Below are positions 4,763 through 27,667 of a stretch of 33,354 nt of DNA, piece by piece (position 1 is the stretch's first letter; each line of letters opens with the position of its first letter). The DNA comes from a virus (taxonomy: Duplodnaviria > Caudoviricetes), in the IMG/VR virus record IMGVR_UViG_3300011437_000021, positions 1 through 33,354 of that record. One strand, given 5' to 3'. The translations under genes and the position numbers were made by a program. Below the pieces are notes generated by a model, which made no database searches, was not told the origin of the DNA, and saw only the letters and a program-made list of their open reading frames with translations.

Positions 4763-4837
4763 GCCGGGGTAGCTCAGTGGTAGAGCTGCTGTTTTGTAAA
4801 CAGCGGGTCGGGGGTTCGATCCCCTCCCCCGGCTCCA
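4763..4837 (+). tRNA. tRNA-Thr(UGU)
   Basis: GCCGGGG/CCCCGGC acceptor stem, GCTC-AGTGGTA-GAGC D arm, GCTGT-TTTGTAA-ACAGC anticodon arm, TTCGATC T loop, encoded CCA. Confidence 0.95.
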
Positions 4838-4888: not shown

Positions 4889-5374
4889 ATGCCTAGTTCG
4901 CGTTCAGTACTTCCGAAACACTATCAGAAGCCAGGAAAGCGACGTGGATCGGTGACGGGGCCCGAAAAGGCCCTGGTGGCACAGTTCGTCCAGGACCTCC
5001 CCGCCCCTCCGACCCCGTCACAGGTCCACGCCCTGGCCCGCACCCTGCGCCGCTCGAAGGAAGCCGTGCTGGCTTTGATCGAGCAGGCTAAGGATAACTT
5101 CCAAGCGAATGCCGACCATTACGTGACTGTTCATAAGCAAGCCGTTGACGCCGCGCTCGCTAATGGAGATGCGAAAAGCCTGGACGTCGCTGTCAGGGGC
5201 TCGCAATGGGCCCTCGAAAACCTGTCCTCCGAAGGAGTCAGCATCGTGGGCAAGAAGTCAGAGATCGGCTCGGGCGCAGGTAGGATTCTCATTGGCATTC
5301 AGATCGGCGGCATGCGACAGGAAGAAGTCGTCAAAGATGCCAAGGTTGTTGTCGAGGGTGAAGACGTCCCATGA
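4889..5374 (+). CDS. putative terminase small subunit
   Basis: ATG at 4889 after GGAG; helical protein directly upstream of and overlapping TerL. Confidence 0.55.
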   Translation: MPSSRSVLPKHYQKPGKRRGSVTGPEKALVAQFVQDLPAPPTPSQVHALARTLRRSKEAVLALIEQAKDNFQANADHYVTVHKQAVDAALANGDAKSLDVAVRGSQWALENLSSEGVSIVGKKSEIGSGAGRILIGIQIGGMRQEEVVKDAKVVVEGEDVP

Positions 5375-6833: not shown

Positions 6834-9050
6834 ATGCCTGAACCATACGAGCAGACGCCGGAGCAGCCCGAAGCAACGGCTGAAAAGGCTTCGGACAATG
6901 CCGCCGAGCCCGACTCTCCCACGATGTCGAAGAAGCAGATCGAGACGTATTTCAAGACGCGCGCGAAATCCTGCAAAACCGAGAAAGACAGCCTCATCCA
7001 GGAATGGCGCCGGAACGTCGAGCTGCGGATTGGTCATGTTGCCGAGCTGTACACGAACGGCTTCAACGTCCCGTTCGACGAGCTGCAGACCGAGCTGAAT
7101 CCTGATTGGTCGCTGACGAAGACGAAGACTGCGAACCTGTATTCGCAGGTGCCCACGGTACGCCTATCGAGTGAGAACAAAGCCTATCGTCCCGCGCTGC
7201 CGCCCTTCGCGAAGCAACTCAACTACGAGATCTCTCCGAAGCGCTCGAACATCGGCGCGGCCATGGAAGAGTGCCTCAACGACGTGGTCAATGCAGCCGG
7301 CATCTGCCTGATCTTCACCGGGTACATGGCCCGCTACAACGAGAAGCTGATTTCAGCCCTCGACGAGCAGACCATGGCGTTGTTTCCGCCTGAAATGCTC
7401 CAGACGCTGGCCGAAACCGAGGTTGAAGACGATTGGGACCCATCCCCGGAGAACCTGGAGCCGATGCTGGCTCAGTTTCAACTGCCGATGAAGCGCACGC
7501 ACGAGGTCGTGTCGGATCGCATCTTCACGCGGCGGATTTCGCCGGTCGATGGGCTCTGGCCGGCTGACTTTACCGGTTCCGACTTCAACGAAGCCGACTT
7601 TGCCGGCTACACGGGCAAACTGTCGTGGGCGGAAGCGAAACTGGAATTCAAGCTGCAAGACGGGCAGTACGATTCGGTAGTCAGCGACAGTGCCGAGGCC
7701 CAGGACAAGACCCTGCGCTCAAACTGGGAGCGCGCCGGGCTCGCGGACACGAAAAAGGTTAAGTTCGACGACATTTACTACTGGCGATATCGTGTCGATC
7801 CCGACGAAAAGTCGCTCGACTGCATCTGGCGCATCGTCTACGTCGAAGGGTTGGACGAGCCGGCGATTCACGAACCGTGGAAGGGCCAGCAGAAGGTCAG
7901 CTTCGACGACGAGAACCCCGAAGCCGGCCACTATTACATCGGGAACACGCGCTTTCCTGTTCAGTTTTGCACACTGACGTACATCACGGACAATCCGATT
8001 CCGCCCTCGGACAGCAGCGCCGGTCGCCCGCAAGTCAACGATCTGCGCCGCTCGCGCCGCGATATGTTCAACAATCGCGCGCACTCAGTGCCCATCCGCT
8101 GGTTCGACGTGAACCGTATCGACCAGACCATCCAGACGATGCTCATGCGCGGCACTTGGCAGGGCATGATTCCGACGAACGGCGACGGCTCCCGAGCGAT
8201 TGGTGAGATCGCGCGCGCCTCGTACCCGGGCGAGAACTTGTCATTCGATCAGCAGGCGATGCAGGACCTGCATGACTCGTGGCAGCTGAGCCCGCAGCAG
8301 ATTTCAGGCGCCGACCAGTCGGGTACAGCTACTGCGGCAAACATCAGCCAGCAGAACTTCGCCACGCGCATGGGCCAGGAACGCGGACGAGTCGCGAAAT
8401 TCTTCCTCAACGTGTGCGAGCTGGTCGCCGGCTACCTGGTCCTCTACTCGGACTTCCCCATCCTCACGCCCGAGGAAAAGGAAGCGATGGAGGGTGCCTG
8501 GGACAACAAGCGCATCACCCAGAACCTCGCATTCAAGATTTTGCCCGATACGCAGATCGTTCTCGACTCGAATTCGCGTATCCAGATGTTGACGAACTTC
8601 CTCAACATCACCGTCAAGTCGGGTTTCATCAATCCGAAGCCGATCATTGTCGAAATCGCCGAGCTGAGTGGCATCGACCCGACCGAAGTGGTTGTTGATC
8701 CGACCCCGCCGGTTCCCGAGCCTCCGTTCAAGTTTTCGTTCAGCGGCAAGGACGACCTGACCAACGTCCTGGTGCTGGCGACGTTCATCGCGAAGGGTGA
8801 ACCGCCGACCATCGAGCAGATCAAGCAAGCGAAGACGCTTATTGTCGAGACCGGCACCTTGCCGACCCTCGAAGAGATGCCCGAGGCTCAACAGCCCCCG
8901 GCAGGCCCAGAAGGGGGTGAGCCGCCTCCTCCCGGCGAGCCCCCACCGGGCTCTGAACCGATGCCTGTTCCGCAAGGCGGCTCGGACGCGAATGAATCAT
9001 GGCATACCGCTGACAAGATTGCGAAGAGGAGTCGGGACACGGAAGCCTAA
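6834..9050 (+). CDS. portal protein
   Basis: 738 aa directly after TerL; TATAANI motif typical of P22-like portals; Pro/Glu-rich tail; AGGAG RBS. Confidence 0.8.
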   Translation: MPEPYEQTPEQPEATAEKASDNAAEPDSPTMSKKQIETYFKTRAKSCKTEKDSLIQEWRRNVELRIGHVAELYTNGFNVPFDELQTELNPDWSLTKTKTANLYSQVPTVRLSSENKAYRPALPPFAKQLNYEISPKRSNIGAAMEECLNDVVNAAGICLIFTGYMARYNEKLISALDEQTMALFPPEMLQTLAETEVEDDWDPSPENLEPMLAQFQLPMKRTHEVVSDRIFTRRISPVDGLWPADFTGSDFNEADFAGYTGKLSWAEAKLEFKLQDGQYDSVVSDSAEAQDKTLRSNWERAGLADTKKVKFDDIYYWRYRVDPDEKSLDCIWRIVYVEGLDEPAIHEPWKGQQKVSFDDENPEAGHYYIGNTRFPVQFCTLTYITDNPIPPSDSSAGRPQVNDLRRSRRDMFNNRAHSVPIRWFDVNRIDQTIQTMLMRGTWQGMIPTNGDGSRAIGEIARASYPGENLSFDQQAMQDLHDSWQLSPQQISGADQSGTATAANISQQNFATRMGQERGRVAKFFLNVCELVAGYLVLYSDFPILTPEEKEAMEGAWDNKRITQNLAFKILPDTQIVLDSNSRIQMLTNFLNITVKSGFINPKPIIVEIAELSGIDPTEVVVDPTPPVPEPPFKFSFSGKDDLTNVLVLATFIAKGEPPTIEQIKQAKTLIVETGTLPTLEEMPEAQQPPAGPEGGEPPPPGEPPPGSEPMPVPQGGSDANESWHTADKIAKRSRDTEA

Positions 9051-9074
9051 CAGAAGCCAGAGGAGGGTAGCTAT

Positions 9075-9332
9075 ACGCCAATGTTTGAGTACAAATGTGA
9101 TACATGCGAACGCCCCGAGGAGCGCTACTTTGCGACCCTCGCCGAGCGCGACAAGTTCGAGGAGCATGGCGCTAAGCCGTGCAAACCGGGCGCGAACCTC
9201 ATCAACCGGAAGTGTGCCGGCACGATGAAACGCCAGCTCTCGGCGTCGAACTTCAAAGTCAACGGCTACTGTGCGGCCAACGGCTACGAATTCAACGGGA
9301 CGCAGACTATTCACAACAAAGGGTTGAAGTAA
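9075..9332 (+). CDS. FmdB-family zinc-ribbon protein (start ACG 9075 or ATG 9081)
   Basis: (M)PMFEYKCDTC...C...C.GTMKRQLSASNFKVNG matches the FmdB MP.YEY.C pattern; AGGAGG RBS 8 nt before ACG. Confidence 0.75.
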   Translation, partial: TPMFEYKCDTCERPEERYFATLAERDKFEEHGAKPCKPGANLINRKCAGTMKRQLSASNFKVNGYCAANGYEFNGTQTIHNKGLK

Positions 9333-9740
9333 ATGGCGGAACGTCTTGATGGTAAGCCTCGACGAGGGTGGACCAAGCCCGGAAGAGAAGCGGTTAAACA
9401 TCCTACGATCTTAGACATTGCATGGGTCGCAGGGGTATTTGAGGGTGAAGGGTCTGTGAGCGCCCCGCACGGTAGTCGAGGGTCGATGACTGCTACCCTA
9501 GTTCAAAAAGACCTGTGGCTGTTAGACAGAGTGGTAGAATTGTTTGGCGGCCACTACTACCTTTCAGGCGGATATACCACAAAAACTAATTCTTCCGGCA
9601 AGTCTACAGTGTGTGGACGATGGGAGATAACAGGGCCTAGAGCACGAGGCTTTGTATTCACAATTTTTTCCTTTCTATCGCCGCGCAGAAGGGCCCAAAT
9701 TAAGGCGGCACTGGGGGGTAATACCGTTGCCAATGTATGA
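9333..9740 (+). CDS. LAGLIDADG homing endonuclease (single motif, free-standing)
   Basis: DIAWVAGVFEGEGSV motif; A/T-ending codons unlike flanking genes. Confidence 0.8.
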   Translation: MAERLDGKPRRGWTKPGREAVKHPTILDIAWVAGVFEGEGSVSAPHGSRGSMTATLVQKDLWLLDRVVELFGGHYYLSGGYTTKTNSSGKSTVCGRWEITGPRARGFVFTIFSFLSPRRRAQIKAALGGNTVANV

Positions 9741-10062
9741 TCGACGCTGTGACACGTGCGAACAGGTCAAGCTGGATTGTTGGGAGCCTATTGAGCACCC
9801 GAACCCAGCCTGCGATCTGTCGCCCGCGTGTACAGGCACCCTCGAACGTGTCTATCTTCCGACGAATCGTGAACAGATTATCGGCGACGAGATCGATGTC
9901 ACCATCAAGCATGCTTTGTGTCACCCGGATGGGACACCCCGGCGATTTCGAAGCCGGGCAGAGTTGAGGCGAGCTGAACAGGCCGCCGGGTACACAAATT
10001 ACGTGCGCCACCTTGGAACCAAAGGCGGCGACAAGTCGAAGCACACATCGCGTTGGACGTAA
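9727..10062 (+). CDS. FmdB-like zinc-ribbon protein (TTG start)
   Basis: GGGGGGT RBS then TTG CCA ATG TAT: (M)PMYDRRCDTC...C....C.G.LERVY. Confidence 0.7.
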   Translation: MPMYDRRCDTCEQVKLDCWEPIEHPNPACDLSPACTGTLERVYLPTNREQIIGDEIDVTIKHALCHPDGTPRRFRSRAELRRAEQAAGYTNYVRHLGTKGGDKSKHTSRWT

Positions 10063-10112
10063 GACAATCGGAGGAGGCAATTTCGCATTCCTCGCGTCAG
10101 TAGGAGCACATC

Positions 10113-11261
10113 ATGTCAGACGAACTTACGGCAGTTATTGCAGGCGCGTTCGCCGATGCAGGCGGCGGCGACTCGGGAGACAGCGGAGCCGACTCCGGCG
10201 ATGTAGACACCGGAGCAGACAATTCTGAGGACATTTCCTCGGACACTTCCTCAGACGAATCCTCGGAAACCCCTGAAGACATAGAAGATAGCTCCGAAGC
10301 CAGTGCGGATACTTCCGAGGACACTGGTGGGGAGCCAGTTGTTGAAGAGGAGCCCGTCGAGGAGGAGCCGGTCGCTGAGAAGACCCAGCTCGAACAGGAT
10401 CTCGAAGAGCTGGGCCTGCGCGACCCGAAGCCGGGCGAGCGGATCAACAAAATTCCTCAGCCCCGCGTCAAGAAGATGGTCGAGAACTACGGGAAGAAGG
10501 TCGAGGCCCGGTTTCAGGGCGAAATCTCGAATCTCAGGGCCGACAACATGCGCCTCTCGCGCTCGGCCCAGACCATGAAGAACATCGACAAGCTGATCGA
10601 CTCGGGCGAGGCCGGCGTCGACCGCTTCATGACCCTGCTCTCGACGATGCACCCGGGCAAGTTCGACAAGTATGTGGGGAACGCCAAGGGTGCCCCGGCG
10701 GCCGGGAAAGCTGCCAAAGCAGCAGGATCGGCAGCAGATTCAGTCGTCGGACCCCGTCCGCAGCCCGACGTCACTTTCGAGGATAAGTCGAAGGGCTATT
10801 CGCCCGAGCAGCACGACAAGCTGCTCGACTGGGTGGCGGCCAAGGCTCGGGAAGAAGCCATCGTAGACATGGACGCGCGCATGGAGGCCAAATACGGCAA
10901 GATCGCCAAAGACTACGACCAGCGGGAAGCCTTCAACGAAGAGCTGCCGAAGGTCCAGGCGGTCATCCAAGGCGTCCATGAGACCTGGGGCAAGGACCTG
11001 GTCGAGAAGCACGAGGACACCATCGTGGCCCTCATGCAGCAGTACCCGGATATGCCGACAGCTGAAGCCGTAGCGCGTGTCCTGGTGCCCCTGGTCCGTG
11101 CCGACCGCAACAAGATGCGTACTGGCTTGATCAAGGAAACCAAGACCAGAACAGCGGCTGCTGCAAAAGTCGTGCCAGGCGGTGCGGCGAAGGATACGAA
11201 CGAGGCGAAGACCCTCGACGACGTCATTCGCCAGAGCATTCGTCGGGCGGGCATCAAGTAA
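10113..11261 (+). CDS. capsid scaffolding protein
   Basis: Very acidic disordered N-terminus, helical core, position between portal and capsid; AGGAG RBS. Confidence 0.7.
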   Translation: MSDELTAVIAGAFADAGGGDSGDSGADSGDVDTGADNSEDISSDTSSDESSETPEDIEDSSEASADTSEDTGGEPVVEEEPVEEEPVAEKTQLEQDLEELGLRDPKPGERINKIPQPRVKKMVENYGKKVEARFQGEISNLRADNMRLSRSAQTMKNIDKLIDSGEAGVDRFMTLLSTMHPGKFDKYVGNAKGAPAAGKAAKAAGSAADSVVGPRPQPDVTFEDKSKGYSPEQHDKLLDWVAAKAREEAIVDMDARMEAKYGKIAKDYDQREAFNEELPKVQAVIQGVHETWGKDLVEKHEDTIVALMQQYPDMPTAEAVARVLVPLVRADRNKMRTGLIKETKTRTAAAAKVVPGGAAKDTNEAKTLDDVIRQSIRRAGIK

Positions 11262-11284
11262 GGCATACATCTTGCAGGAGGGGC

Positions 11285-11314
11285 TTGACACCATTCAGGC
11301 CCTTCCTGCATAAT
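11285..11314 (+). promoter_or_regulatory. sigma70-type promoter embedded in an inverted repeat
   Basis: TTGACA 11285-11290, 18 nt spacer, CATAAT 11309-11314; IR TGCAGGAGGGGCTTGA / TCAGGCCCTTCCTGCA spans 11273-11310. Confidence 0.6.
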
Positions 11315-11364
11315 CACTGTGTCGACTGACCCTACGTTAATGGGTTTTACGGAGTAACGCTCCT

Positions 11365-11871
11365 ATGGGAAAAATTGTTCTTTTAGGGCATGTGTTTGAT
11401 CGGTTAACTGTTACGGCAGAGGCTGGTCGAGACAATTTCGGTGAGGTTCTCTGGGCGTGTCGCTGTGCGTGTGGTGAAATACGAACCATCCGCTCTAGTG
11501 CCTTGAGAACTGGTAAACACAAAAGTTGTGGTTGCCTGAAAGCCGATAAGATTCGAGAACGATCTGTCACTCATAACGGTAGTCAAACGTCTGAGTATAG
11601 ATCGTATCGAGCAATGTTGCGCAGATGTTATGATCCTCGGCATCGCGCATATCCGTGGTATGGCGGGCGTGGTATTAAAGTCCACCAACTGTGGCGAGAG
11701 GATTTCTTGGTATTTTTCGTCGATTTAGGGCCCCGACCAGAAGGTTGGACTCTTGATCGCATAGATGCCGATCGCGACTACGAGCCGGGAAATTGTCGCT
11801 GGGCTCCGTGGTCCGTACAAGCAACAAATAAGCGACGACCCTCATACGCTCTACCTCTACTAAGCGTATAG
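11365..11871 (+). CDS. HNH homing endonuclease (free-standing)
   Basis: W.C.C.CG...KSCGC N-terminal module, YGGRGIKV, TLDRIDADRDYEPGNCRWA; AT-rich codons. Confidence 0.85.
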   Translation: MGKIVLLGHVFDRLTVTAEAGRDNFGEVLWACRCACGEIRTIRSSALRTGKHKSCGCLKADKIRERSVTHNGSQTSEYRSYRAMLRRCYDPRHRAYPWYGGRGIKVHQLWREDFLVFFVDLGPRPEGWTLDRIDADRDYEPGNCRWAPWSVQATNKRRPSYALPLLSV

Positions 11872-11872
11872 G

Positions 11873-11984
11873 ACCCTCTCAGGCTCTGGGTTAGTGAGCT
11901 GTTCAGTAGAGAACAGTGAACAGTTTCCCACTTATTAGACAGGATACTGTCAGGATAAGTGGTTAATCCAGAAAGAGTTAGGGT
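11873..11984 (+). ncRNA. structured 5' leader of the major capsid gene
   Basis: Nested stems ACCCT/AGGGT, TCTGGGTTAG/TTAATCCAGA, CTGTTC/GAACAG, CCACTTAT/ATAAGTGG, GACAG/CTGTC. Confidence 0.5.
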
Positions 11985-11990
11985 AGCTAT

Positions 11991-12923
11991 ATAGCTTTGA
12001 CAATCGGACAGGGAGTTGCCGTTTCCTATCCAGCCGTGCTGAACTTCAAGCGGAAAGCGGCCAATCAGTGGGTCGAGTCTGCGTTCCTGCGCGAACTGGA
12101 GCGGCAGAACGCGGTCGAACGCGCATCACTCGGCCCCACCATCGAAAAGACGCTGGACTACCAGCGCAACCCCGGCGCGGCGTTCCTGGCGACGGACCTG
12201 CAGCCGACCAGCATGGCGAAGACCGAAGTGCTGACGGCTGCGTCGTACGACGTCGCTGAAATCTCCGTCCCCATCGTTTGGTCGAAGAAAGACGAAGTCC
12301 AGAACCCGACTGAGAATCAGAAGATTGCACTCGTGAAGGCGCTGCTGTCGAACGCTATCGACTCGCACGACGACCTGATCGAGCAGTACATCTTCGCAAC
12401 CTCGACCAACGGCTTCCTCGGACTCGACACCCACATCACCGATGCCGGCACCGGCTCGGACGGTGGGATCGACAGTTCGGTCAACCTCTGGTGGAGGAAT
12501 CAGCAGGCCACCTACGTGGATGACACGGACATCGAAGCCGCGTTCACCACGGTGTGGAATGCCTGCGCGAAGGGCAGCGGCTCCAACCTGCTCCCGACCC
12601 TGATGGTCAGCGACGGCGCGACCCAGGCCCTCTTCGAGGGGACACAGCAGGCGAATCAGCGCTACATCGACACCCAGGAGCTGAAAGCCGGTTTCAAGAT
12701 CCTTGGTTTCAAGACCGCGCGTTACGTGTTCAGCCAGTACGCAGACACGGACGTCAACTTCCTCAACTCGAAGAACTTCCAGCTCGTCGTGTCGAAGGAG
12801 TACTTCCGGGACCGGGGCGAAACGCAGGAGATCCCGAACGCGAACGGCTTCGTGTCGAAGATCTACTCGGCGCTCCAGACCTGCACCAACAACCGCAGCC
12901 GCCTTGGCGTTGCCCACGTGTGA
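11991..12923 (+). CDS. major capsid protein (start ATA 11991 or TTG 11997)
   Basis: About 310 aa after scaffold; strongly G/C-ending codons; motifs such as NGFLGL, GGID, WWRNQ and C-terminal TNNRSRLG resemble HK97-fold podovirus capsids. Confidence 0.85.
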   Translation: MALTIGQGVAVSYPAVLNFKRKAANQWVESAFLRELERQNAVERASLGPTIEKTLDYQRNPGAAFLATDLQPTSMAKTEVLTAASYDVAEISVPIVWSKKDEVQNPTENQKIALVKALLSNAIDSHDDLIEQYIFATSTNGFLGLDTHITDAGTGSDGGIDSSVNLWWRNQQATYVDDTDIEAAFTTVWNACAKGSGSNLLPTLMVSDGATQALFEGTQQANQRYIDTQELKAGFKILGFKTARYVFSQYADTDVNFLNSKNFQLVVSKEYFRDRGETQEIPNANGFVSKIYSALQTCTNNRSRLGVAHV

Positions 12924-12931
12924 GATCGGCG

Positions 12932-13381
12932 ATGGCGATACTTTGTACTCACTGTGGCGAGGAGAAGGATGCTTTGGAATTTTACCCGAGCACTCTTCGA
13001 ACCTCGACAAAATGGTGCAAGCAGTGTATGGGAGCAGCTCAGAAGTCTTGGGCAGTTCGCAATCGGGATAAAACCCGAGCACGAGTACAGAGATATCATC
13101 AGAACCACAAAGCTGCTCGAAGTGAATATGCTAAGTGGCATCGAATTCTTAGTCGATATGGCATTACGAAGGAGCAATATATAGTAATGCTGGCTCGTCA
13201 GGAACATCGCTGTGCGGTGTGTGATGATTCTTTGATAAATAGGCCCCGTGTAAGTGTTGATCATTGCCACGAAACACAGAAAGTACGTGGTATTTTGTGT
13301 AACAACTGTAATCGGGGGGTCGGATTACTCAAAGACAATTCAACTGTGCTGCTTCGTGCTGCACAATACGTTTCATCGTAG
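12932..13381 (+). CDS. endonuclease VII-like homing endonuclease
   Basis: CTHC..CKQC N-terminus, RYGIT...Q.HRCAVC, SVDHCHETQKVRGILCNNCNRGVG; AT-rich. Confidence 0.85.
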   Translation: MAILCTHCGEEKDALEFYPSTLRTSTKWCKQCMGAAQKSWAVRNRDKTRARVQRYHQNHKAARSEYAKWHRILSRYGITKEQYIVMLARQEHRCAVCDDSLINRPRVSVDHCHETQKVRGILCNNCNRGVGLLKDNSTVLLRAAQYVSS

Positions 13382-13402
13382 AAAGGGATAAAGGATCACA
13401 TC

Positions 13403-13915
13403 ATGGCACTTCCTTACTTCACAGGAAACGCACTGGCGGCCGTTGGCGCCCCAGCGGACGTTCACACGGCTCAGCGCAACCCACTGGGTCTGGTTGCGGC
13501 AGGTCTTGGCGCGGACGGTGGCTACGCAGAGTACGTCTACCTGCTCGGCGTGGCATCGACGGCCATCGGCTCATGGGTCAACTACGACGTGGGTGTCGAC
13601 TACAGCACAGCGCTGCTCGACACAGACGTGGCCGCGACGATGCTGGGCAGAATCGCCATCGCGATGGGGGCTACTGTAGCCGCCAGCTACGGCTGGTACC
13701 AGATCACGGGTGCGGCTTCGGGTCTCGCGCTGACGGCCTCGACCGATACCAAGAACGCGTTCGCGACGGCAACGGCGGGCTCAGTTGACGATTCCGGGGC
13801 GGGCGCGGAAGTGCTCATCTTCGGCGCGTGGTCGACTGGGGCAGTCAGTGAGACGACATTCTTGCAGGCGTTTGCACTCAATCGTCCGCACATGATCGGC
13901 ATCTCGCTCGACTAA
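13403..13915 (+). CDS. putative capsid decoration/cement protein
   Basis: Ala/Gly-rich 170 aa after capsid; EYVYL...YGWYQI.G motif typical of such proteins. Confidence 0.65.
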   Translation: MALPYFTGNALAAVGAPADVHTAQRNPLGLVAAGLGADGGYAEYVYLLGVASTAIGSWVNYDVGVDYSTALLDTDVAATMLGRIAIAMGATVAASYGWYQITGAASGLALTASTDTKNAFATATAGSVDDSGAGAEVLIFGAWSTGAVSETTFLQAFALNRPHMIGISLD

Positions 13916-13937
13916 CGCGGTAACTGAAGGGATAGTC

Positions 13938-14279
13938 ATGGCGAATCGCTCAGGAAACGCGCCCCTTCATGTTGAAGTAGTGGTAGCCGCTGGCACGGTG
14001 CAAGCCGATGCCACGGCTATCCCTACGAATTCAGCTCCGGCGCTCGTTGTGTCTACTGGCAATGGCACAGTTGGCATACGGCTGCCCAAGGCAGTCAAGG
14101 GCAAAACGTTCTACGTGAAGAATATCGGCGGGGGTGGGCTGCTCGTATGGCCGGCTGTCGGCGATGCGATCAATGCACTTGCCGTAGACGGTGCAATCAC
14201 GATGGCTACAGTGACATCGGCTGTGTTCATCGCACAGAATTCAACCACGTGGCAGACCGTGCCCACGATCCCGAGCTAA
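13938..14279 (+). CDS. putative minor structural protein
   Basis: 113 aa; G.RLP....G..FYVKN......LVWPA.GDAIN motif; AAGGGA RBS. Confidence 0.6.
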   Translation: MANRSGNAPLHVEVVVAAGTVQADATAIPTNSAPALVVSTGNGTVGIRLPKAVKGKTFYVKNIGGGGLLVWPAVGDAINALAVDGAITMATVTSAVFIAQNSTTWQTVPTIPS

Positions 14280-14341
14280 GCATTCACGCTGGTCCTGTGT
14301 AGAGCCAGCACTTATCAACCCCAGCAAGAAAGAAGTCACAC

Positions 14342-15277
14342 ATGGCCCTTCAAGTCTCCAAAGCAACGCTCGACTGGCAGACACTCAATAACGCCCAGAC
14401 GCAGACGCTCACCAGGCGTGGTACCACGTACTACGTGGACGCAGTCAACGGCGTCAATACGCGCCTCGGCAAATCCTGGCGTAAGGCATTTCTCACGATG
14501 GCCCGTGCGTTCGAAGTGATCGAGTCGGGCGACACCATCGTATTCTCGGGTAGAATCCGAGAACAGCTCACGACCCCCGTCGGGGTGTTCGACGTCGCTG
14601 TCGTGGGGACGGGCAACCGTCCTCGTCACGCAGACACATCGCCGGCAGGCGGATCGGACTCGTCAGCACAGTGGGCAGCTCCGCTGGTGCCAACGGCCGC
14701 GACTCCACTCGTGGCTGTCATTCAGCAGGGCTGGAAGTTCGAAAACATCCTCTTCACCGGCCCTACGGATGTTCACGCACTCAACGCCAGTATCGAGCTT
14801 CGACGCACAGCCGAGGGCGCTGCGGAAACCGATGCGTCCCACATGAGTGTGATCGGGTGTCGCTTTGCCTCGGGGTACAAGCACATCAACGACACAGGCG
14901 GCTGCTACGGCGTGCTGCTTCAGGGCAATCGCTTTGTCTCGGCGGCGAACTTTGCCGTCCTCGGTGTCGGCAACATCGGCGTGGGCCAGAGCGCCTGGGA
15001 AATCACGCACAATCGTTTCGACGAGAACGTCAATGGTGTGATGATTGCCGGCTTTGCCTGCGACATCAACTACAACTCGTTCAGCGATGGCGGCACACCA
15101 AACACGACCGTGGTGTTGAATACCAACAACGGCGGCGGCGCAAACAATCGTGTCTCGTACAACAACTTCCAGACGACGACGGGGAATTTCAACTCGCCCG
15201 ACGTGGTTGGCACTACGACTGACTACTGGAATCCGAACTACAGTTTCGACACGTTGGAGACCGGCGTCCCGGCGTAA
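14342..15277 (+). CDS. right-handed beta-helix (pectin-lyase-like) virion protein
   Basis: YYVDAVNG...GKSWRKAFLT...GDTIV N-terminus; Asn-rich repeats I..N.F. Confidence 0.7.
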   Translation: MALQVSKATLDWQTLNNAQTQTLTRRGTTYYVDAVNGVNTRLGKSWRKAFLTMARAFEVIESGDTIVFSGRIREQLTTPVGVFDVAVVGTGNRPRHADTSPAGGSDSSAQWAAPLVPTAATPLVAVIQQGWKFENILFTGPTDVHALNASIELRRTAEGAAETDASHMSVIGCRFASGYKHINDTGGCYGVLLQGNRFVSAANFAVLGVGNIGVGQSAWEITHNRFDENVNGVMIAGFACDINYNSFSDGGTPNTTVVLNTNNGGGANNRVSYNNFQTTTGNFNSPDVVGTTTDYWNPNYSFDTLETGVPA

Positions 15278-15379
15278 TTCACTCGACCCCGGAGCAATCA
15301 CGCGCCGGGCACACTCGGGGAGCCCGAGTCCAAATAACCGGGCTCCCCCACTCGCTCCTGCGAGAGAAGGACTACGATC

Positions 15380-16045
15380 ATGACATTCGAAAAGAAAGCA
15401 CCCAAGCCCAGCACGCCCGTTGAGGAAACCCCTGTCGAACAGCCTGAAGCGCAGTCGAATCATGCGCCCGGCACATCCCTGGCGCCCGCACAGCCTGCTG
15501 GTCTTGACCAATTTGGTCAAATCATCGGAGACGCTGTCGCGCGTGGGATTGCCCAGAGCGCCCCTCCACGCAGGATGACTATCGGCGAGTACGTACGCCG
15601 GGGTGCCATCAATCAGTACCACCCGGACCCAAAGGTTCGGTTCAGTTTCGACCGGGACTACTACCAGAACGGGCACCAGATTTACTTCGACACCACGCAC
15701 GACCGCGAGGTCGAACTGCTGAATCGGCTCACCCACTCTGGTCGCTACATCAATCGCCTGGTCGAGGTCGTCGTTGTGCAAAATGGCAGCGAGGAAGTCG
15801 TCAACATCAACTTCTCGAACAAGCGAGACAAAGCGTTCGAGCTGAAAGGCCACGCGCGCGACTTCACGGACATACTGCAGCAGATCGTGGCCGCGCAGAA
15901 AGAGGAGCGCGCGGATCAGGAGGACGATGCAGCCGACCGGGCCGAGCGCAAGCTGGCACGTCAGGCGAAGCAGGCTAAGAAGACCCAGCCCAGCTTCGGC
16001 AACAGCAAGGCCTCTCGCGAGGCTCGTGAAAAGGTAGGTGCGTGA
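15380..16045 (+). CDS. hypothetical phage protein
   Basis: 221-aa ORF, AAGGA RBS, phage-like codon use. Confidence 0.7.
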   Translation: MTFEKKAPKPSTPVEETPVEQPEAQSNHAPGTSLAPAQPAGLDQFGQIIGDAVARGIAQSAPPRRMTIGEYVRRGAINQYHPDPKVRFSFDRDYYQNGHQIYFDTTHDREVELLNRLTHSGRYINRLVEVVVVQNGSEEVVNINFSNKRDKAFELKGHARDFTDILQQIVAAQKEERADQEDDAADRAERKLARQAKQAKKTQPSFGNSKASREAREKVGA

Positions 16046-16308
16046 TGGCTGGACTCTTCGAATATCTGATGCGAAAGGCGACGGGGAAGCGGACAGGCGA
16101 CATCGAGCTACCCAACGAATCGGGCGAGGTTGATCCGCGTTTGCCGAAGTCTGGTCAGGTCGGAGAGTCGTTTCGCAAAGCCGGCCGCACTGTGAAGGAC
16201 CTGTCTGAAGTCGGGGGCAGTCCTATCGAACGGCTTCAGGCCGCCGGCAAACGGGGGATGCGGAAACGCTTCGACGAGGAGAACCGTCGGGCCCTCGAAG
16301 GCAAGTGA
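16045..16308 (+). CDS. hypothetical protein
   Basis: TGATG coupling, AGGTAGG RBS. Confidence 0.6.
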   Translation: MAGLFEYLMRKATGKRTGDIELPNESGEVDPRLPKSGQVGESFRKAGRTVKDLSEVGGSPIERLQAAGKRGMRKRFDEENRRALEGK

Positions 16309-16309
16309 G

Positions 16310-16450
16310 ATGCCCCTGATCAAAGGTTCGTCGAAGTCGGTGATCAACCAGAATATCTCCGAGTTGAGGCATTCCGGGTATCCTGAAAAGCAGGCGATCG
16401 CCATCGCGATGGACAAAGCCGGTAAGCGTAAGCCTAAGAAGAAAAAGTAG
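16310..16450 (+). CDS. small basic phage protein (46 aa, below ORF-track cutoff)
   Basis: MPLIKGSSKSVINQNISELRHSGYPEKQAIAIAMDKAGKRKPKKKK resembles the widespread MPLKKGKS...QAVAIA family. Confidence 0.8.
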   Translation: MPLIKGSSKSVINQNISELRHSGYPEKQAIAIAMDKAGKRKPKKKK

Positions 16451-16487
16451 CGCTCGGCGGTAGGGCCCGGCCGCCGAGTGTTAGAAT
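16451..16487 (+). promoter_or_regulatory. hairpin followed by extended -10 element
   Basis: CGCTCGGCGG / CCGCCGAGTG IR then TG-T-TAGAAT (16479-16487). Confidence 0.4.
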
Positions 16488-16496
16488 AGAGGAGTC

Positions 16497-16916
16497 ATGG
16501 CATCAAAGTTTCTGATCCAAGTCGTCGAGAAGAAAACAGGTGAAGTAGTACAGTGGGCGCCCGGCCTCGGTCTTGAACGACAGTTCGAAGATGAAGTGTG
16601 TCGTCGAGTGGGGGCTAAGCTGGGACTGATTGAATCGCGCCCTCGACAGGTTGATGCCGCGCCAGTGCTGACACCCGCGCCTGTCGTCGAAGTCCCAGTC
16701 ATCGAACCTAAGAGTAGGGGCTTCGTCGAGACGATGAAGGAATTCTTCGGCTACGGCGCTGCACCCTCTGTTGACGTACCACTCGTCACACTCGTCGTCG
16801 AGTCCAAGGTCGATCCTGTGGTCGAGACAAAACTGCCCGCAGAAAAGATCATGGTGTGTGTACGTGAGGCCCTAAACGAAACCTTCTACGAAATCAAATC
16901 GAACGTGAGGCCCTAA
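16497..16916 (+). CDS. hypothetical protein
   Basis: AGAGGAG RBS, 139 aa. Confidence 0.7.
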   Translation: MASKFLIQVVEKKTGEVVQWAPGLGLERQFEDEVCRRVGAKLGLIESRPRQVDAAPVLTPAPVVEVPVIEPKSRGFVETMKEFFGYGAAPSVDVPLVTLVVESKVDPVVETKLPAEKIMVCVREALNETFYEIKSNVRP

Positions 16917-17668
16917 TGGGTTTCAGTACCTCGTCCCACCCGGCCGGATACTCCCTGAACTACGTGTGGGATGTCGGCCTATTGGAATGGGTCGTTATGA
17001 CCCAACCCGGTGGCAGTGGCGGGGGAGACGTCAACATTACTGAAGTTGGCGGGGTGGCGATCGCACTTGGTCAAACGACCATGGCAGGGAGTTTCCCTGT
17101 CACAATCGCCTCGAATCAAAGTGCGCTTCCTGTCGCAGGAGATGTCGCAAGCGGCAGTGCCGACGCTGGAAATCCTGTGCTTATCGGCGTGCGTGCTGAG
17201 ACGGCACTGCCGACAGCCGAGGCCGATAACGACCGTGTACGGGTTATCGGCGATACGACGGGTCGTCCATTTGTTCGAACAGGATTGCAGGGCCCATCGG
17301 CGAACTACTGGGATGTGCAGAACGTGGCCTCTGCCAACACCCAGGCGACTGCCACACAGGCTGCGGCAGGCGCGGGCATTCGTAACGTGTGCGTAGGATT
17401 TACGGTCACGCTTGCAGCAACGAGCACGGCTCCTGTAGCAGTCAACTTGACTGTAGCTGTGATTGACGGTGCAACTGGTGGAACCACGTACTTGTGGCGT
17501 ACCACGATCTCTTTGCCGGCGACTGCAGGGGCAATTTCAGCATTCGTACGATCAGGGGTGTGGATGCCCGGCACGGCCAACACAGCTATGACCATCGAGT
17601 TTTCAGCGGCCGGCGGCGCGAACACTATTGAATCAGTCACCATGGAAGGAACGACAGTCGCGGAGTAG
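16916..17668 (+). CDS. putative structural (tail/head appendage) protein
   Basis: Ala/Gly/Thr-rich; GQTTMAGSFPVTIASNQS and GNPVLIG repeats seen in phage fibre proteins. Confidence 0.65.
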   Translation: MGFSTSSHPAGYSLNYVWDVGLLEWVVMTQPGGSGGGDVNITEVGGVAIALGQTTMAGSFPVTIASNQSALPVAGDVASGSADAGNPVLIGVRAETALPTAEADNDRVRVIGDTTGRPFVRTGLQGPSANYWDVQNVASANTQATATQAAAGAGIRNVCVGFTVTLAATSTAPVAVNLTVAVIDGATGGTTYLWRTTISLPATAGAISAFVRSGVWMPGTANTAMTIEFSAAGGANTIESVTMEGTTVAE

Positions 17669-17671
17669 CCT

Positions 17672-17986
17672 ATGCCTAACACAAATCCTCAAGCTATCCT
17701 CATCGCCAACACAAAAATCCGGCCTCTGGCTGATTTGCTGGCGAAGCTCTACAACCGGATCAAATCAGCGCAGATTGAGTTTACGGCAGAGGATTGGGGT
17801 ACGTTGTTCCCCAACGACTCTGAAATCATCGTAGACGGATCAGCCACTGACGGGCGCACGCCTATCACGAATGCGGAAGTGCGTACATTCATGCTGACGG
17901 ATGCGGTTGCTGTGCTGACACCGCTGGAAGCGTCTTCGAATGCAGGGCGCAATCGCGTGTTCAAAATCGCTGTTAACCCGGAGTAG
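17672..17986 (+). CDS. hypothetical protein
   Basis: GGAG RBS; IVDGSATDGRTPIT motif. Confidence 0.65.
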   Translation: MPNTNPQAILIANTKIRPLADLLAKLYNRIKSAQIEFTAEDWGTLFPNDSEIIVDGSATDGRTPITNAEVRTFMLTDAVAVLTPLEASSNAGRNRVFKIAVNPE

Positions 17987-17989
17987 CGC

Positions 17990-19375
17990 ATGGCACTCTC
18001 AGCGGCGACGGTTTGGGAGATCCGCACCGCAGGCGCGGCGACGAATGGCGGAGGGTTTGTCACGGGAGCGGCAGGGACGGACTATTCTCAGCAGGATGCC
18101 AAGAACACGGTAGGGAATAATATCTCTACTACTGATGCGGTCGCAGTAGGCACGGGTGTCATTACCTCTGCCACAGCGACATTCACGTCAGCCATAGTTG
18201 GAAACATCATCTATCTGCAAGGCGGAACGGGCGCACTCGCTGCTGGACGGTATCAAGTCACTGTCTTTACAAGCTCTACATCAATCACGGTAGACCGCAA
18301 CGTCGCAGCAGGCACCGGGATCACGATGAACATCGGAGGCGCGCATAGCGATCCGGCACTCGTGGCTGCGGTCGTTGTCGCGGCGAATAGGGTCTACATC
18401 AAGGCAGGCACGTATAGCATCACCAGCGCCACACCGAATGTGGCGGGTGGATGTGCCAGTATTGCTGTCACGCGAACAATATGGGAGGGGTATCAGACGA
18501 CCCGCGGTGATTTCGGCACGCCACCCACCTTACTCGCAAGCGGGATTAGCACAGCCAAAATAGTCGTCGTTCCGTCATCGAGTGGCAATGATACGTTGCT
18601 TGTGAATATCACCATAGACGGTGATGATCTTACCTCGATCCGTGGATTTGCTGCTGAGGGCGCGCCGAGAGTGTCATTGAGAGGATGCACGGCCATTGAT
18701 TGCACAAACAATGGGTTTGCTATAGCCGGAGCAACGTCAGCAATGGTGCTATGTCGAGCGACTGGATGCACGACGACGAGCGCAGCGATGCAAATCAGCG
18801 GCACCACAATGATCGGGTGTATTTCACACGACAATGAAGTCACGGGAATTGCGGTCACCTCGAACGGCACGCTAGTCCACTGCATCTCATACAACAATAC
18901 AGGTGGCAGTAGTTTTGGGTTCGACCTGTTTAACGCAAACGGGGTCACCATGACGAACTGTGTCGCGTATGGCAATGGCACTGATGGAGTCGGATCAACA
19001 AATGCGCTCACGAGTCCGCGATTTATCAATTGCATTGCCGAAGCCAATGGCGGAGTCGGATTTGACCTCACAGGAATGACCTCTCCATCGGTATTTAACA
19101 ACTGCGCCACATTCAATAATACGAGCGGGTCTATTACGGGGACACCGTCTTACAACATCGGATTTGTCACGGGAACAGCCTCGTTCTTTACGAATCCGGC
19201 GAGTGGTGATTTTAGCCTTAACACCACGGCAGGTGGAGGAGCCGCAGCGAGAGCCGCTGGCCTGCTTGGCGTGTTTCCTGGTGGTCTGACGACAGGCTAT
19301 CTCGACATCGGCGCGGCGCAACATGCCAATCCGGCGAGTTCTGGCGGGCAGAGTGTATCGATTTTTGGTGGGTGA
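17990..19375 (+). CDS. beta-helix tailspike-like protein
   Basis: Repeated ..NC.A..N...GF units; C-terminal F.NP..GDFSL...DIGA.Q motif. Confidence 0.7.
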   Translation: MALSAATVWEIRTAGAATNGGGFVTGAAGTDYSQQDAKNTVGNNISTTDAVAVGTGVITSATATFTSAIVGNIIYLQGGTGALAAGRYQVTVFTSSTSITVDRNVAAGTGITMNIGGAHSDPALVAAVVVAANRVYIKAGTYSITSATPNVAGGCASIAVTRTIWEGYQTTRGDFGTPPTLLASGISTAKIVVVPSSSGNDTLLVNITIDGDDLTSIRGFAAEGAPRVSLRGCTAIDCTNNGFAIAGATSAMVLCRATGCTTTSAAMQISGTTMIGCISHDNEVTGIAVTSNGTLVHCISYNNTGGSSFGFDLFNANGVTMTNCVAYGNGTDGVGSTNALTSPRFINCIAEANGGVGFDLTGMTSPSVFNNCATFNNTSGSITGTPSYNIGFVTGTASFFTNPASGDFSLNTTAGGGAAARAAGLLGVFPGGLTTGYLDIGAAQHANPASSGGQSVSIFGG

Positions 19376-19381
19376 TTCATC

Positions 19382-19933
19382 ATGACCTTCACTGCTATTG
19401 TTGCCAAAGATCCAAACGTTGCTTGGGCTGCAGGTCTGTTTGAGGGAGAAGGGTGCTTCTCTTTTGGCAGTGGAGATACCGGCAACAGAAGCCTGCGGGC
19501 AATGATTACCATGACCGACCTAGATGTTTTGGAGAAGTTTCAATCTGTAGTGGGTATGGGGACTATTCGGAAAAGAAAATTGAACCCCCCACATAAGCAA
19601 CAGTGGTCGTGGTATATCAATTCTTTTCTAGAATTTCAATCGTTGGCTGTTATGTTGTGGCCTTGGTTATGTTCACGACGTCGAGCCAAATTACAAGAAC
19701 TTTTCGACCGATACGATGCGTTAGAGCCTGTCTCTCTAAAGTTGCGTATTGATAGAACAGCAGATATTAAAGCTGCACTCATGGCTTTATCTGCTGTACC
19801 TTTGTGGGGTAGACGTTGGAAACCTGGTAAAACCCAAAACGACATTGCTAAGGAGTTTGGAGTATCTCCCGGCTGTGTTTCTTTGATCAAACGTACTCTA
19901 TTAGGGGGTGCCTTACGACGTTCTCAGCCATAG
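19382..19933 (+). CDS. LAGLIDADG homing endonuclease with C-terminal HTH
   Basis: VAWAAGLFEGEGCF, MTDLDVLEKF...G.GTI, TQNDIAKEFGVSPGCVSLIK; AT-rich. Confidence 0.82.
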   Translation: MTFTAIVAKDPNVAWAAGLFEGEGCFSFGSGDTGNRSLRAMITMTDLDVLEKFQSVVGMGTIRKRKLNPPHKQQWSWYINSFLEFQSLAVMLWPWLCSRRRAKLQELFDRYDALEPVSLKLRIDRTADIKAALMALSAVPLWGRRWKPGKTQNDIAKEFGVSPGCVSLIKRTLLGGALRRSQP

Positions 19934-20790
19934 TCGCCATCGTCGCTGACCGGCTCAACCTTACGTCGGTTGCTGCACTCACCCGCATCGGCACAGAAGT
20001 CAACGACCGCTACCGAGAGGTCATGTCGGGAGTCGGACTGCAAACGTCTATCCGCACGACGATTTCGCAAGCGGTGACAGTCGGCAACAACCAGGTCGTA
20101 TTCAGTTGCCAGAAGATCTTCACGATCTTCGACAACTACGGCCGCTCGGTTACGTCGATCACGCGCTCGGGGACGACGGCCACGGTGACGACGGCTACGG
20201 ATCATGGGTACGCGACGGGTGTCTCGGTAAAAGTCGCAGGGGCTGTTGAAACCGCATACAACGGTGTTTTCGTCATTACCGTGACTGGTGATACTACGTT
20301 TACGTACACCGTGTCAGGGTCTCCGTCCACACCAGCCACTGGCACCATCACCGTCGAGCTGCTGCAAACGCAGTGGATTCTCGGCGAGCGCACGATGGAC
20401 GAGCTGCGGATGATGACGATTCAGTCCGATCCGCCTCAGAACTGGGCGCCTGCGAACATGAACGCGGACACGGTAACAGCCCAACTCGACGTCATTCCGT
20501 CGTCAGCGTACATCCTCAACGCCGATGTCGAGATCAACATTACCAATCTGGCCGGCTCGAACGTGCCCGGCTTCGCACAGGATTTCCACGATATCCTGGT
20601 GCGTGGGGCCTTGGCCGACGAGCTGATGAAGATGGAGAAATACAGCGAAGCAGAGACTCAGGAGGGTAAGTTTGAGAAGCGCTTGTCCGAACTGCGCCTC
20701 TACATCGCGAAGTCAAACGGCCTCGATATCTTCCAGGGTCGTAACGCAGGTATCGGCCTGGCCAACGGCTTTCACGGGCTGGTGAGCTAA
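19915..20790 (+). CDS. head-tail adaptor with inserted E1-FCCH-like domain (probable ACG start; first ATG 20023)
   Basis: Frame open from 19852; (M)TFSAIVAIVADRLNL...EVNDRYREV is an adaptor-like N-terminal helix; P.F..DFHDILV.GA C-terminal motif. Confidence 0.7.
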   Translation, partial: TTFSAIVAIVADRLNLTSVAALTRIGTEVNDRYREVMSGVGLQTSIRTTISQAVTVGNNQVVFSCQKIFTIFDNYGRSVTSITRSGTTATVTTATDHGYATGVSVKVAGAVETAYNGVFVITVTGDTTFTYTVSGSPSTPATGTITVELLQTQWILGERTMDELRMMTIQSDPPQNWAPANMNADTVTAQLDVIPSSAYILNADVEINITNLAGSNVPGFAQDFHDILVRGALADELMKMEKYSEAETQEGKFEKRLSELRLYIAKSNGLDIFQGRNAGIGLANGFHGLVS

Positions 20791-26624: not shown

Positions 26625-26960
26625 ATGCTTGGCACCCTCAAATCGATTGCCGGTCCTGCCTATCTGTCGAACTCGGCGGCGAATATCTACACGCCCCCGG
26701 CGTCTACGATCTATACGGTCATCCGGCACATTCACATCGCGAACGTGACGGCGGGTGCCGTGACCTTCTCGCTGTACATCGGGGCGACAGGCGCCTCGGC
26801 CGGCGGGACCCAGCTCTTTGGTGGTCGGTCGATTCCGGCAAACAGCGAATTCGACTACTACTGCGTACGAAAAATGCTCTCGACGGATTTCCTTGTCGGT
26901 ATTGCCTCGGCGGCGACCTCTCTGGTCATCGACGTCGAGGGTGAACAGGTGGTCGTATGA
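26625..26960 (+). CDS. small virion protein
   Basis: GGAG RBS; IYT.P.....VIRHIHIAN motif. Confidence 0.7.
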   Translation: MLGTLKSIAGPAYLSNSAANIYTPPASTIYTVIRHIHIANVTAGAVTFSLYIGATGASAGGTQLFGGRSIPANSEFDYYCVRKMLSTDFLVGIASAATSLVIDVEGEQVVV

Positions 26961-27667
26961 TGATTGCGCCTCAGCCCGGGCAGAAAAAGAAACCCGGCAT
27001 CGCTGACGTCCTGATGTCTCGGGTTCCTGGTGTGGTCAGTTCGCATGGTCCCGGATCTGGAGCCCCTCCGACCGCTCGGCCGGCGTCCAAGATGATCACG
27101 CCTCCGGGAGTAAAGAATTTGCCACCTGGGCGTCCGGGCGCAGCATCACAGCCGCGCATGGTAACGCCCCCGGGCCGGGGCAATCTGCCTCCAGGTCGCC
27201 CGACACCGAAGCCGGCGCCTCGAATGGTGACCCCGCCTGGGCGTCCGAATTTGCCTCCAGCGGATCCCAGGAAGCCTCCGATGAAGCCGCCAGTTGCGCG
27301 ACCCGCGCCTCGTACGGTCACGCCTCCAGGTCCTGGTAATCTCCCGCCCGGTGTCGGTATGATCAACCCGGAGGGCCCGGGCAATCTTCCTCCGCAAGGA
27401 CCTGTGATGATCAGCCCCGAGGGCCCAGGAAATATGCCGCCGGGTGCATCGCCTGCGTCTATGTCGGCACCGTACCAGGGCAATGGCGGCACTGGCATTG
27501 CCTCACTCGGGCCAGACGGACAACCACTGGCTGTTGATCCGAACACGGGTGCTCCGATGGACCCAGGCGCGATACCATTCAACCTGAATGCCGGTCAAGG
27601 TGGGGGTATCCAAGACGAGCTACTTCGACGGTTCCAAATGCAGCAGGAGCAGGGCTATGGCTACTGA
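26957..27667 (+). CDS. Pro-rich repeat protein (putative internal virion protein)
   Basis: Six (M/T)xxPxG.xN(L/M)PP repeats; ATGA overlap with upstream gene. Confidence 0.6.
   Translation: MMIAPQPGQKKKPGIADVLMSRVPGVVSSHGPGSGAPPTARPASKMITPPGVKNLPPGRPGAASQPRMVTPPGRGNLPPGRPTPKPAPRMVTPPGRPNLPPADPRKPPMKPPVARPAPRTVTPPGPGNLPPGVGMINPEGPGNLPPQGPVMISPEGPGNMPPGASPASMSAPYQGNGGTGIASLGPDGQPLAVDPNTGAPMDPGAIPFNLNAGQGGGIQDELLRRFQMQQEQGYGY

Follow-up and report, generated by a model that had tools for sequence, protein, structure and literature searches.

The window analysed here is the whole 33,354-base contig IMGVR_UViG_3300011437_000021, the genome of a podovirus-like phage with terminase, probable portal and scaffold, major capsid, adaptor and tail genes. 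Its virion operon holds four free-standing nuclease genes: two LAGLIDADG, one HNH and one of endonuclease VII (EndoVII) type. Where methionine is expected at the start of four genes, the window carries ACG (9075), TTG (9727), ATA (11991) and ACG (19915), and among relatives near-cognate starts (ATA, ATC, ATT or ACG) accompany particular nuclease families. This is a real and recurrent feature, a variant of free-standing homing endonuclease biology that reaches the major capsid gene. We consider it quite possible, if short of probable, that nucleases at host-gene starts supply a replacement ribosome-binding site (RBS) and a near-cognate codon, ATG being avoided since it would rebuild the nuclease target.

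Four genes lack ATG at the methionine position

The affected genes are as follows.

9075..9332, + strand: FmdB-like zinc-ribbon gene 1 (FmdB-1), ACG at the Met position; weak TIGR02605 match below cut-off, homolog N-termini; in-frame ATG at 9081
9727..10062, + strand: FmdB-like gene 2 (FmdB-2), TTG start inside the 3′ end of LAGLIDADG gene 1 (LAG1); relative L050, without the nuclease, has ATG and the same next five codons; in-frame ATG at 9733
11991..12923, + strand: major capsid protein gene whose Met position reads ATA; NF033394 (E 5e-39), phrog_9953; TTG at codon 3; in-frame stop at 11979
19915..20790, + strand: head-tail adaptor gene; its Met position, which lies within the 3′ end of LAGLIDADG gene 2 (LAG2), reads ACG; homologs match SU10_adaptor, and the model matches podophage portal-tail chains 8zkk_B and 9k09_d

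As an earlier note on this DNA had claimed, the four codons stand in the sequence where homologs put Met. FmdB homologs begin MP.., capsid homologs MAL.. (most of the 120 best capsid proteins start MAL or MSL) and the closest adaptor homologs MTFTAIVA (MTF..); in all three families Met stands exactly at these codons. Each near-cognate codon is followed directly by conserved residues, with an RBS at 5–8 nt, and all 14 long window genes checked have intact frames. When 36 + strand genes were compared, non-ATG starts occurred only at these four sites plus one GTG (23151), in keeping with the note's remark that the rest of the operon mostly uses ATG; for two of the 36 the listed start was a few bases off, with an ATG beside it. 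Its description of TTG 9727 as a lost start holds in part: the codon replaces the Met-position ATG of L050, but TTG is a canonical start in translation table 11.

Sequencing error, for which the note had asked a check, is ruled out as the source. Assembled contigs (not raw reads) from other runs, possibly of one campaign, match all four codons with 0 differences: X2 8900–9676 and X4 8900–9227 at site 1 (9075), X4 9381–9790 at site 2 (9727), X3 11839–12304 at site 3 (11991) and X2 19749–19948, at depth 2.5, at site 4 (19915). Run X6 gave no cover.

Within this genome only 19915 lacks a nearby canonical fallback codon. No ATG, GTG or TTG lies in frame between the stop at 19849 and the ATG at 20023, as had been noted earlier. 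Because an invariant Arg falls within the 36 adaptor residues preceding 20023, and residues 2–39 are modelled as two confident helices (predicted local distance difference test, pLDDT, 85–95) in a model that matches the podophage portal-tail chains, 20023 is unlikely to be the natural adaptor start. Nearby canonical codons are likewise missing at the related loci L049/L050 (none before codon 75), L004, L113 and L158; they are present at 9075, 9727 and 11991. We infer initiation at the near-cognate codon, most strongly at these fallback-free sites. Such initiation would explain a systematic mis-annotation, in which gene callers leave only 295 aa for this capsid and 255 aa for the adaptor. Capsid calls that begin downstream are those of P0120–P0123, P0153, P0167, P0179 and P0226.

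The adaptor also contains, at about 20149–20364 (residues 79–150), a β-barrel insert absent from shorter adaptors, whose modelled fold matches the FCCH domain of ubiquitin E1 and an endosialidase barrel. One adaptor homolog lies in a Vicinamibacterales metagenome-assembled genome (MAG).

Near-cognate starts are associated with two nuclease families

The nuclease genes, and the gene behind EndoVII that served as internal control, are listed here.

9333..9740, + strand: LAG1, free-standing, single-motif LAGLIDADG endonuclease; phrog_5046; family profile matches I-HjeMI (E 5e-11) and I-AniI
11365..11871, + strand: free-standing HNH endonuclease; phrog_374 (E 3.5e-56); stop codon in the 5′ arm of an RNA stem
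12932..13381, + strand: endonuclease VII-type gene; PF02945; the next gene keeps ATG
13403..13915, + strand: virion structural gene with ATG; phrog_29386; 79 homolog open reading frames (ORFs) with ATG
19382..19933, + strand: LAG2, free-standing LAGLIDADG endonuclease; PF00961 (E 2e-5); codons 1–9 (19382–19408) encode the adaptor N-terminus MTFTAIVAK

The LAGLIDADG, HNH and EndoVII nuclease domains each retain a catalytic motif, and close relatives hold empty cognate alleles: L050 without LAG1, L051 without the HNH gene, and an X3 contig without EndoVII, whose loose end at 12919 resumes window sequence at about 13378. The same co-occurring strain (run X3) has variant bases at 9308–9324. The earlier note placed all affected genes beside endonucleases; 9727, 11991 and 19915 do lie behind one, but 9075 follows the portal gene and has LAG1 downstream. 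That the gene at 13403 keeps ATG was correct, and holds for its homologs.

We collected 128 capsid loci (L048 is the window itself; one lies in an Altimarinota MAG) and then dereplicated them. Nucleases were detected with a motif/GC filter that yielded 458 candidate ORFs, of which 62 were viewed and 37 scanned with PHROGs; some nucleases may be missed. FmdB starts (n = 43, one false regex match dropped) behind a nuclease or its remnant were 4 ATT, 2 TTG and 1 ATG, against 34 ATG, 1 TTG and 1 ACG elsewhere, so that near-cognate codons made up 4/7 and 1/36, respectively. For capsids, 20 loci with unseen upstream DNA, all ATG, were left out and three ATG were read by eye; starts behind a nuclease were 1 ATA, 2 ATC, 1 GTG and 9 ATG, versus 64 ATG, 1 ATC and 1 GTG elsewhere (near-cognate 3/13 versus 1/66). 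Combined, near-cognate starts occur at 7/20 nuclease-adjacent capsid and FmdB genes of the dereplicated relatives and at 2/102 others (p 3e-5, uncorrected for kinship). Equal frequency without endonucleases, which the earlier note had named as a refutation, was not seen. Its expectation of ATG in endonuclease-free relatives was also borne out, for the window versus L051 and L069 versus L004/L084 (capsid) and for the window versus L050 (FmdB). No near-cognate start was found in five other well-aligned families (g13403, g13938, g16310, g20790, g22707), where the few apparently startless members proved to be shifted in the alignment, with ATG slightly further on. The adaptor family often starts with GTG or TTG (7/25).

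The link is family-specific, involving one HNH and one LAGLIDADG family. Carriers of the HNH family (68–72% identity) have capsid starts ATA, ATC, ATC and GTG (4/4 non-ATG), and genes behind LAG1-family members start TTG, ATT, ATT and ATC (4/4). The presence of varied one-step neighbours of ATG within one nuclease family points to selection against ATG, which we regard as likely from these comparisons. A wider LAGLIDADG scan, in which 80 of 279 matches were kept (65 distinct junctions), added two cases: L154 (FmdB, ATC) and L158, an unrelated capsid family with ATT behind a LAGLIDADG gene, aligned with Met1 of a homolog. LAG1 and HNH searches returned only known carriers and distant nucleases, the LAG2 search gave no further loci, and a pattern scan of viral contigs for further FmdB modules gave 9 stretches, of which L004 alone was relevant. 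At the end of L155 (after about 2348), a LAG1 relative is followed by ATC GCA TTA CCA, a possible near-cognate start; the contig stops 25 bases on.

Nucleases capture host gene starts

The closest adaptor homologs open MTFTAIVAK[IV]ADRLNL. Among 66,656 window positions, the adaptor N-terminus is matched only twice, by the LAG2 start and by the 19915 copy. Since LAG2 opens with the adaptor's first nine residues, it took the host RBS and ATG and supplies a duplicate 5′ end that begins ACG. Seven of the first 24 bases of the 19915 duplicate differ from the LAG2 start, yet only one residue besides the start is changed. Host N-termini are also captured in L037 (MTF), L002 (MRRIDL versus MRNIDL) and L004 (MP). 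The ATG of LAG1 occupies the position of the FmdB-2 ATG in nuclease-free relatives, and the L075 HNH gene likewise sits at the ATG of the displaced FmdB. Capture of the host start and provision of a replacement 5′ end are shown at the level of sequence. The capsid HNH gene differs, replacing the leader behind a promoter:

11285..11314, + strand: sigma70-like promoter match upstream of the HNH gene; L051, which has no nuclease, carries a comparable −35 element ahead of its capsid leader

Self-splicing introns or inteins are ruled out as the setting: LAG2 and the adaptor lie in different frames with both 5′ copies retained, and the window has no Rfam intron match at E≤1 (its tRNA is the sole Rfam match), a search that can miss ORF-split introns. 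Group I-like introns do interrupt the first capsid codons in relatives (L016 9722–10000; L043 7687–9104, with a LAGLIDADG ORF; L027 after 9628); these capsids lie behind free-standing nucleases and keep ATG (L016 and L043 judged by eye). Mobile elements repeatedly insert at the start of the capsid gene, making it a hotspot.

A shared module precedes the near-cognate codons

9060..9074, + strand: FmdB-1 RBS module; GGAGG/GGGT core, U at −1

A 12-mer comprising the last 11 nt of this module and the first base of the start codon is identical to the capsid site and occurs in the window only at 9064 and 11980. The FmdB-1 module also precedes ATT in L004, L075 and L113, and at 9060..9074 it is possibly the left-over 3′ end of a lost endonuclease cassette. 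The GGGT core is found at 10/12 near-cognate and 7/123 ATG starts, and U at −1 at 11/12 and 21/123, respectively; U at −1 may pair with A37 of the initiator tRNA. TTA or TTG stands at codon 3 in 6/6 non-ATG capsids versus 13/64 ATG capsids. Just before the small terminase gene, at 4763–4837, lies an ordinary elongator tRNA-Thr(UGU) whose 5′ part shares GGGTAGCT with the RBS module; GGGTAGCT is probably common to the two by chance.

A predicted RNA structure links the HNH stop to the capsid RBS

11864..11996, + strand: predicted RNA with a three-way junction, in the closing stem of which the HNH stop region is base-paired to the capsid RBS; z −4.95 in the window, −6.7 in L006

This structure has 8 compensatory pairs over three carriers, 6/13 pairs in one hairpin, and in 3/3 near-cognate carriers the HNH stop falls in the 5′ arm of the RBS-closing stem. 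Blocking that arm lowers the predicted opening energy from 10.9, 18.2 and 13.0 to about 6.7, 8.7 and 4.5 kcal/mol, a drop of 4–9.5. In L067, a 25-codon frame from ATC (5219–5296) has its TAG at the foot of a hairpin that precedes the capsid RBS, which resembles the placing of the HNH stop in its stem; the frame may be a leader peptide or a chance occurrence.

Such an arrangement invites an explanation by translational coupling or addiction, in which a weak codon bars independent initiation and ribosomes leaving the nuclease make the essential gene, guarding the nuclease frame from decay. It is favored by the stem layout and the fall in opening energy just described, by nuclease stops 1–4 nt before the near-cognate codon in L004, L034, L075 and L154, and by T4 nucleases that are retained through embedded promoters of downstream genes (PMC2988022). 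The resting opening energies of carriers, however, lie within or near the range of ATG relatives (9.2–15.8), so that the capsid RBS is not unusually sequestered; in L113 the nuclease in front of ATT is only a remnant, interrupted by a stop; and neither L067 nor site 9075 has an upstream nuclease. Re-initiation, too, is inhibited by excess initiation factor 3 (IF3; PMC2268962), which means that coupling would not necessarily loosen the proofreading of the codon. We find coupling an unlikely explanation of the missing ATG.

History of the alleles

In a quick capsid tree, HNH carriers fall in three separate lineages, two of them with ATG-bearing, nuclease-free sisters: L051 is the window's sister, and L069 is flanked by L004/L084. 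L067 (ATC, no HNH) has the same capsid protein as L006 (HNH) with the first 30 codons recoded, 12/27 codons being identical there versus 257/275 downstream. This implies that recombination moves the 5′ module and that the module can occur where the nuclease is absent. Between the window and L051, 8/24 codons are identical at the 5′ end versus 177/244 downstream, the lowest among the close pairs listed. Recoding specific to carriers is clear only for L006/L067, and is otherwise largely a general feature. In L113, ATT stands right behind the decayed C-terminus of the L075 HNH, a remnant with an internal stop.

Proposed explanation and its alternatives

In our proposal, a nuclease gene would insert in or just before the first codons and capture the host RBS and ATG, as seen in sequence for LAG2 and its counterparts in L002, L037 and L004; the capsid HNH would replace the leader instead. 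The downstream copy would receive a GGGT-core RBS, U at −1 and a non-ATG codon, all of them visible in the alleles. The formylmethionyl initiator tRNA would decode the near-cognate codon with the aid of this context and, at the capsid, probably of a 120-nt stem that unfolds as ribosomes finish the HNH gene. The nuclease would recognise the conserved ATG-plus-first-codons region of empty alleles. Because the duplicate restores the coding part of the target, immunity would need a changed start codon plus synonymous recoding, and the module could outlive the nuclease, as in L113, L067 and window site 9075. Self-immunity would be the simplest and best reason for a missing ATG: with the conserved coding half of the target restored by the duplicate, only the start codon and silent positions are free to differ. 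It would also account for ACG at 9075, a paralogous site that would be protected from LAG1. In a stronger version, which we think doubtful, unrelated homing endonucleases read the start codon as target and force virion genes, including the major capsid gene, onto portable GGGT-N-U(−1) near-cognate initiation, and a 120-nt RNA switch ties capsid synthesis to finished nuclease translation, leaving the phage dependent on its parasite.

Several results weigh against nucleases supplying near-cognate starts to escape their own cleavage. The loci are phylogenetically non-independent, and nuclease detection passed through the motif/GC prefilter. EndoVII-type genes mostly leave the neighbour's ATG intact, and in the wider LAGLIDADG set just 4/65 junctions, all among the closest matches (by eye), have a near-cognate start. 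ATC occurs without an endonuclease in L067/L102, site 9075 has no nuclease upstream, a second FmdB paralog in L075 retains ATG beside the HNH carrier, and 5′ synonymous divergence is common to all capsid pairs. Shine-Dalgarno pairing energy at near-cognate starts showed no significant advantage over ATG starts (p 0.16), and stronger pairing was rejected. The free-standing T4 nucleases that have been characterised cleave at sites hundreds to thousands of bases away from the gene that encodes them (PMC2988022). Finally, AUA, AUC and AUU yield 1–2% of AUG in E. coli and other codons 0.1–1% (10.1101/063800), and ACG severely cut T7 0.3 synthesis (PMC5499595), values hard to reconcile with a capsid gene. 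Higher yields are on record: about 10–30% of AUG for S. aureus AUA/AUU with an extended Shine-Dalgarno sequence (PMC13009471), and AUA equal to AUG in an optimised context in vitro (PMC5499595).

The in-frame ATG or TTG two codons on at sites 1–3 (9081 ATG, 9733 ATG, 11997 TTG) also counts against the proposal and suits a frozen accident, in which insertion removed ATG and the near-cognate codon of the cassette tail sufficed, or the codon-3 ATG/TTG was used, with no selection against ATG. The shared GGGTAGCTAT module could then be one inherited allele passed between cassettes, and the GTG/TTG starts of the adaptor family fit equally. ATG at 19915 would create TGA in the LAG2 frame, so ACG there may have arisen from an ATGA overlap by a single recent mutation, in this one case. 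Against this, the codons are one step from ATG, yet ATG is avoided by 4/4 HNH and 4/4 LAG1-family carriers while the flanks diverged; the capsid needs high output, and L049 is without any fallback. We judge an accident of this kind rather unlikely.

Physiological tuning, whereby near-cognate starts make virion assembly respond to IF3, ppGpp or the supply of nutrients and endonucleases are neighbours only by coincidence, agrees with the preferential inhibition of non-AUG mRNAs by nutrient limitation and ppGpp (PMC5499595) and with the medium dependence of ccpN AUA (PMC13009471); it is improbable given ATG in 64/66 nuclease-free capsids and 34/36 nuclease-free FmdB genes. Least probable by far is restoration of AUG by RNA editing, an alternative in the earlier note, or use of the phage tRNA-Thr(UGU) as a special initiator: ACG and ATA are formally editable and the window's only tRNA reads ACA/ACG, but the corresponding codons of relatives include ATC and ATT, which C-to-U or A-to-I changes cannot convert to AUG, and L018, L058 and L126 carry this type of tRNA although their capsid genes begin with ATG. 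The window's tRNA has a paired G1-C72 and is without the three G-C anticodon-stem pairs of initiators, and together with the presence of its type in ATG-capsid phages this led to its rejection.

Should self-immunity hold, a selfish element would have changed a start codon. The natural allele pairs, ATG without and non-ATG with the nuclease, would make two questions testable: how nucleases on their own target escape self-cleavage, and which context lets bacterial ribosomes make a very abundant protein from AUA/AUC.

Other features

10113..11261, + strand: probable scaffold gene with ATG start, assigned by position; no profile match
26957–27667: ORF of 236 aa, rich in proline and containing PPG/GPGNLPP repeats; no family match

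Upstream of the capsid, relatives carry tRNA-like genes (L028 9815–9890, L033 7246–7320, L032 9571–9797) with the anticodons TTA, TCA and TAT, respectively, of which the first two would decode the stop codons UAA and UGA.

Comparison with known systems

The literature search found no title or abstract start describing nucleases that supply non-AUG starts, within a scope in which subscription journals mostly fell outside and supplements were not covered. Certain mitochondrial endonuclease genes interrupt another gene and bring along a copy of its end. They resemble the present case in repairing the gene with a duplicate end, and differ in that a normal end is restored there, whereas the 5′ duplicate here is without ATG.

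Natural non-AUG initiation (infC AUU/AUC; S. aureus cvfC1 AUU and ccpN AUA, with an extended Shine-Dalgarno sequence; PMC5499595, PMC13009471) is alike in placing a near-cognate codon at a conserved Met within a distinctive conserved context. In those bacteria, however, such starts belong to chromosomal genes and are fixed for regulation, whereas here the trait is polymorphic, tracks a mobile element and includes the major capsid gene.

The free-standing homing endonucleases of T4-like phages (seg, mob; intronless homing; PMC2988022) are likewise intergenic, patchy across relatives and co-converting for their flanks, and some embed promoters for an essential gene behind them, as segG does for gene 32. 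For T4-like phages the passages of that source describe promoters, hairpins, overlaps and distant cut sites, and not host-ATG capture or the supply of a near-cognate start, the two respects in which the nucleases of the window and its relatives differ.

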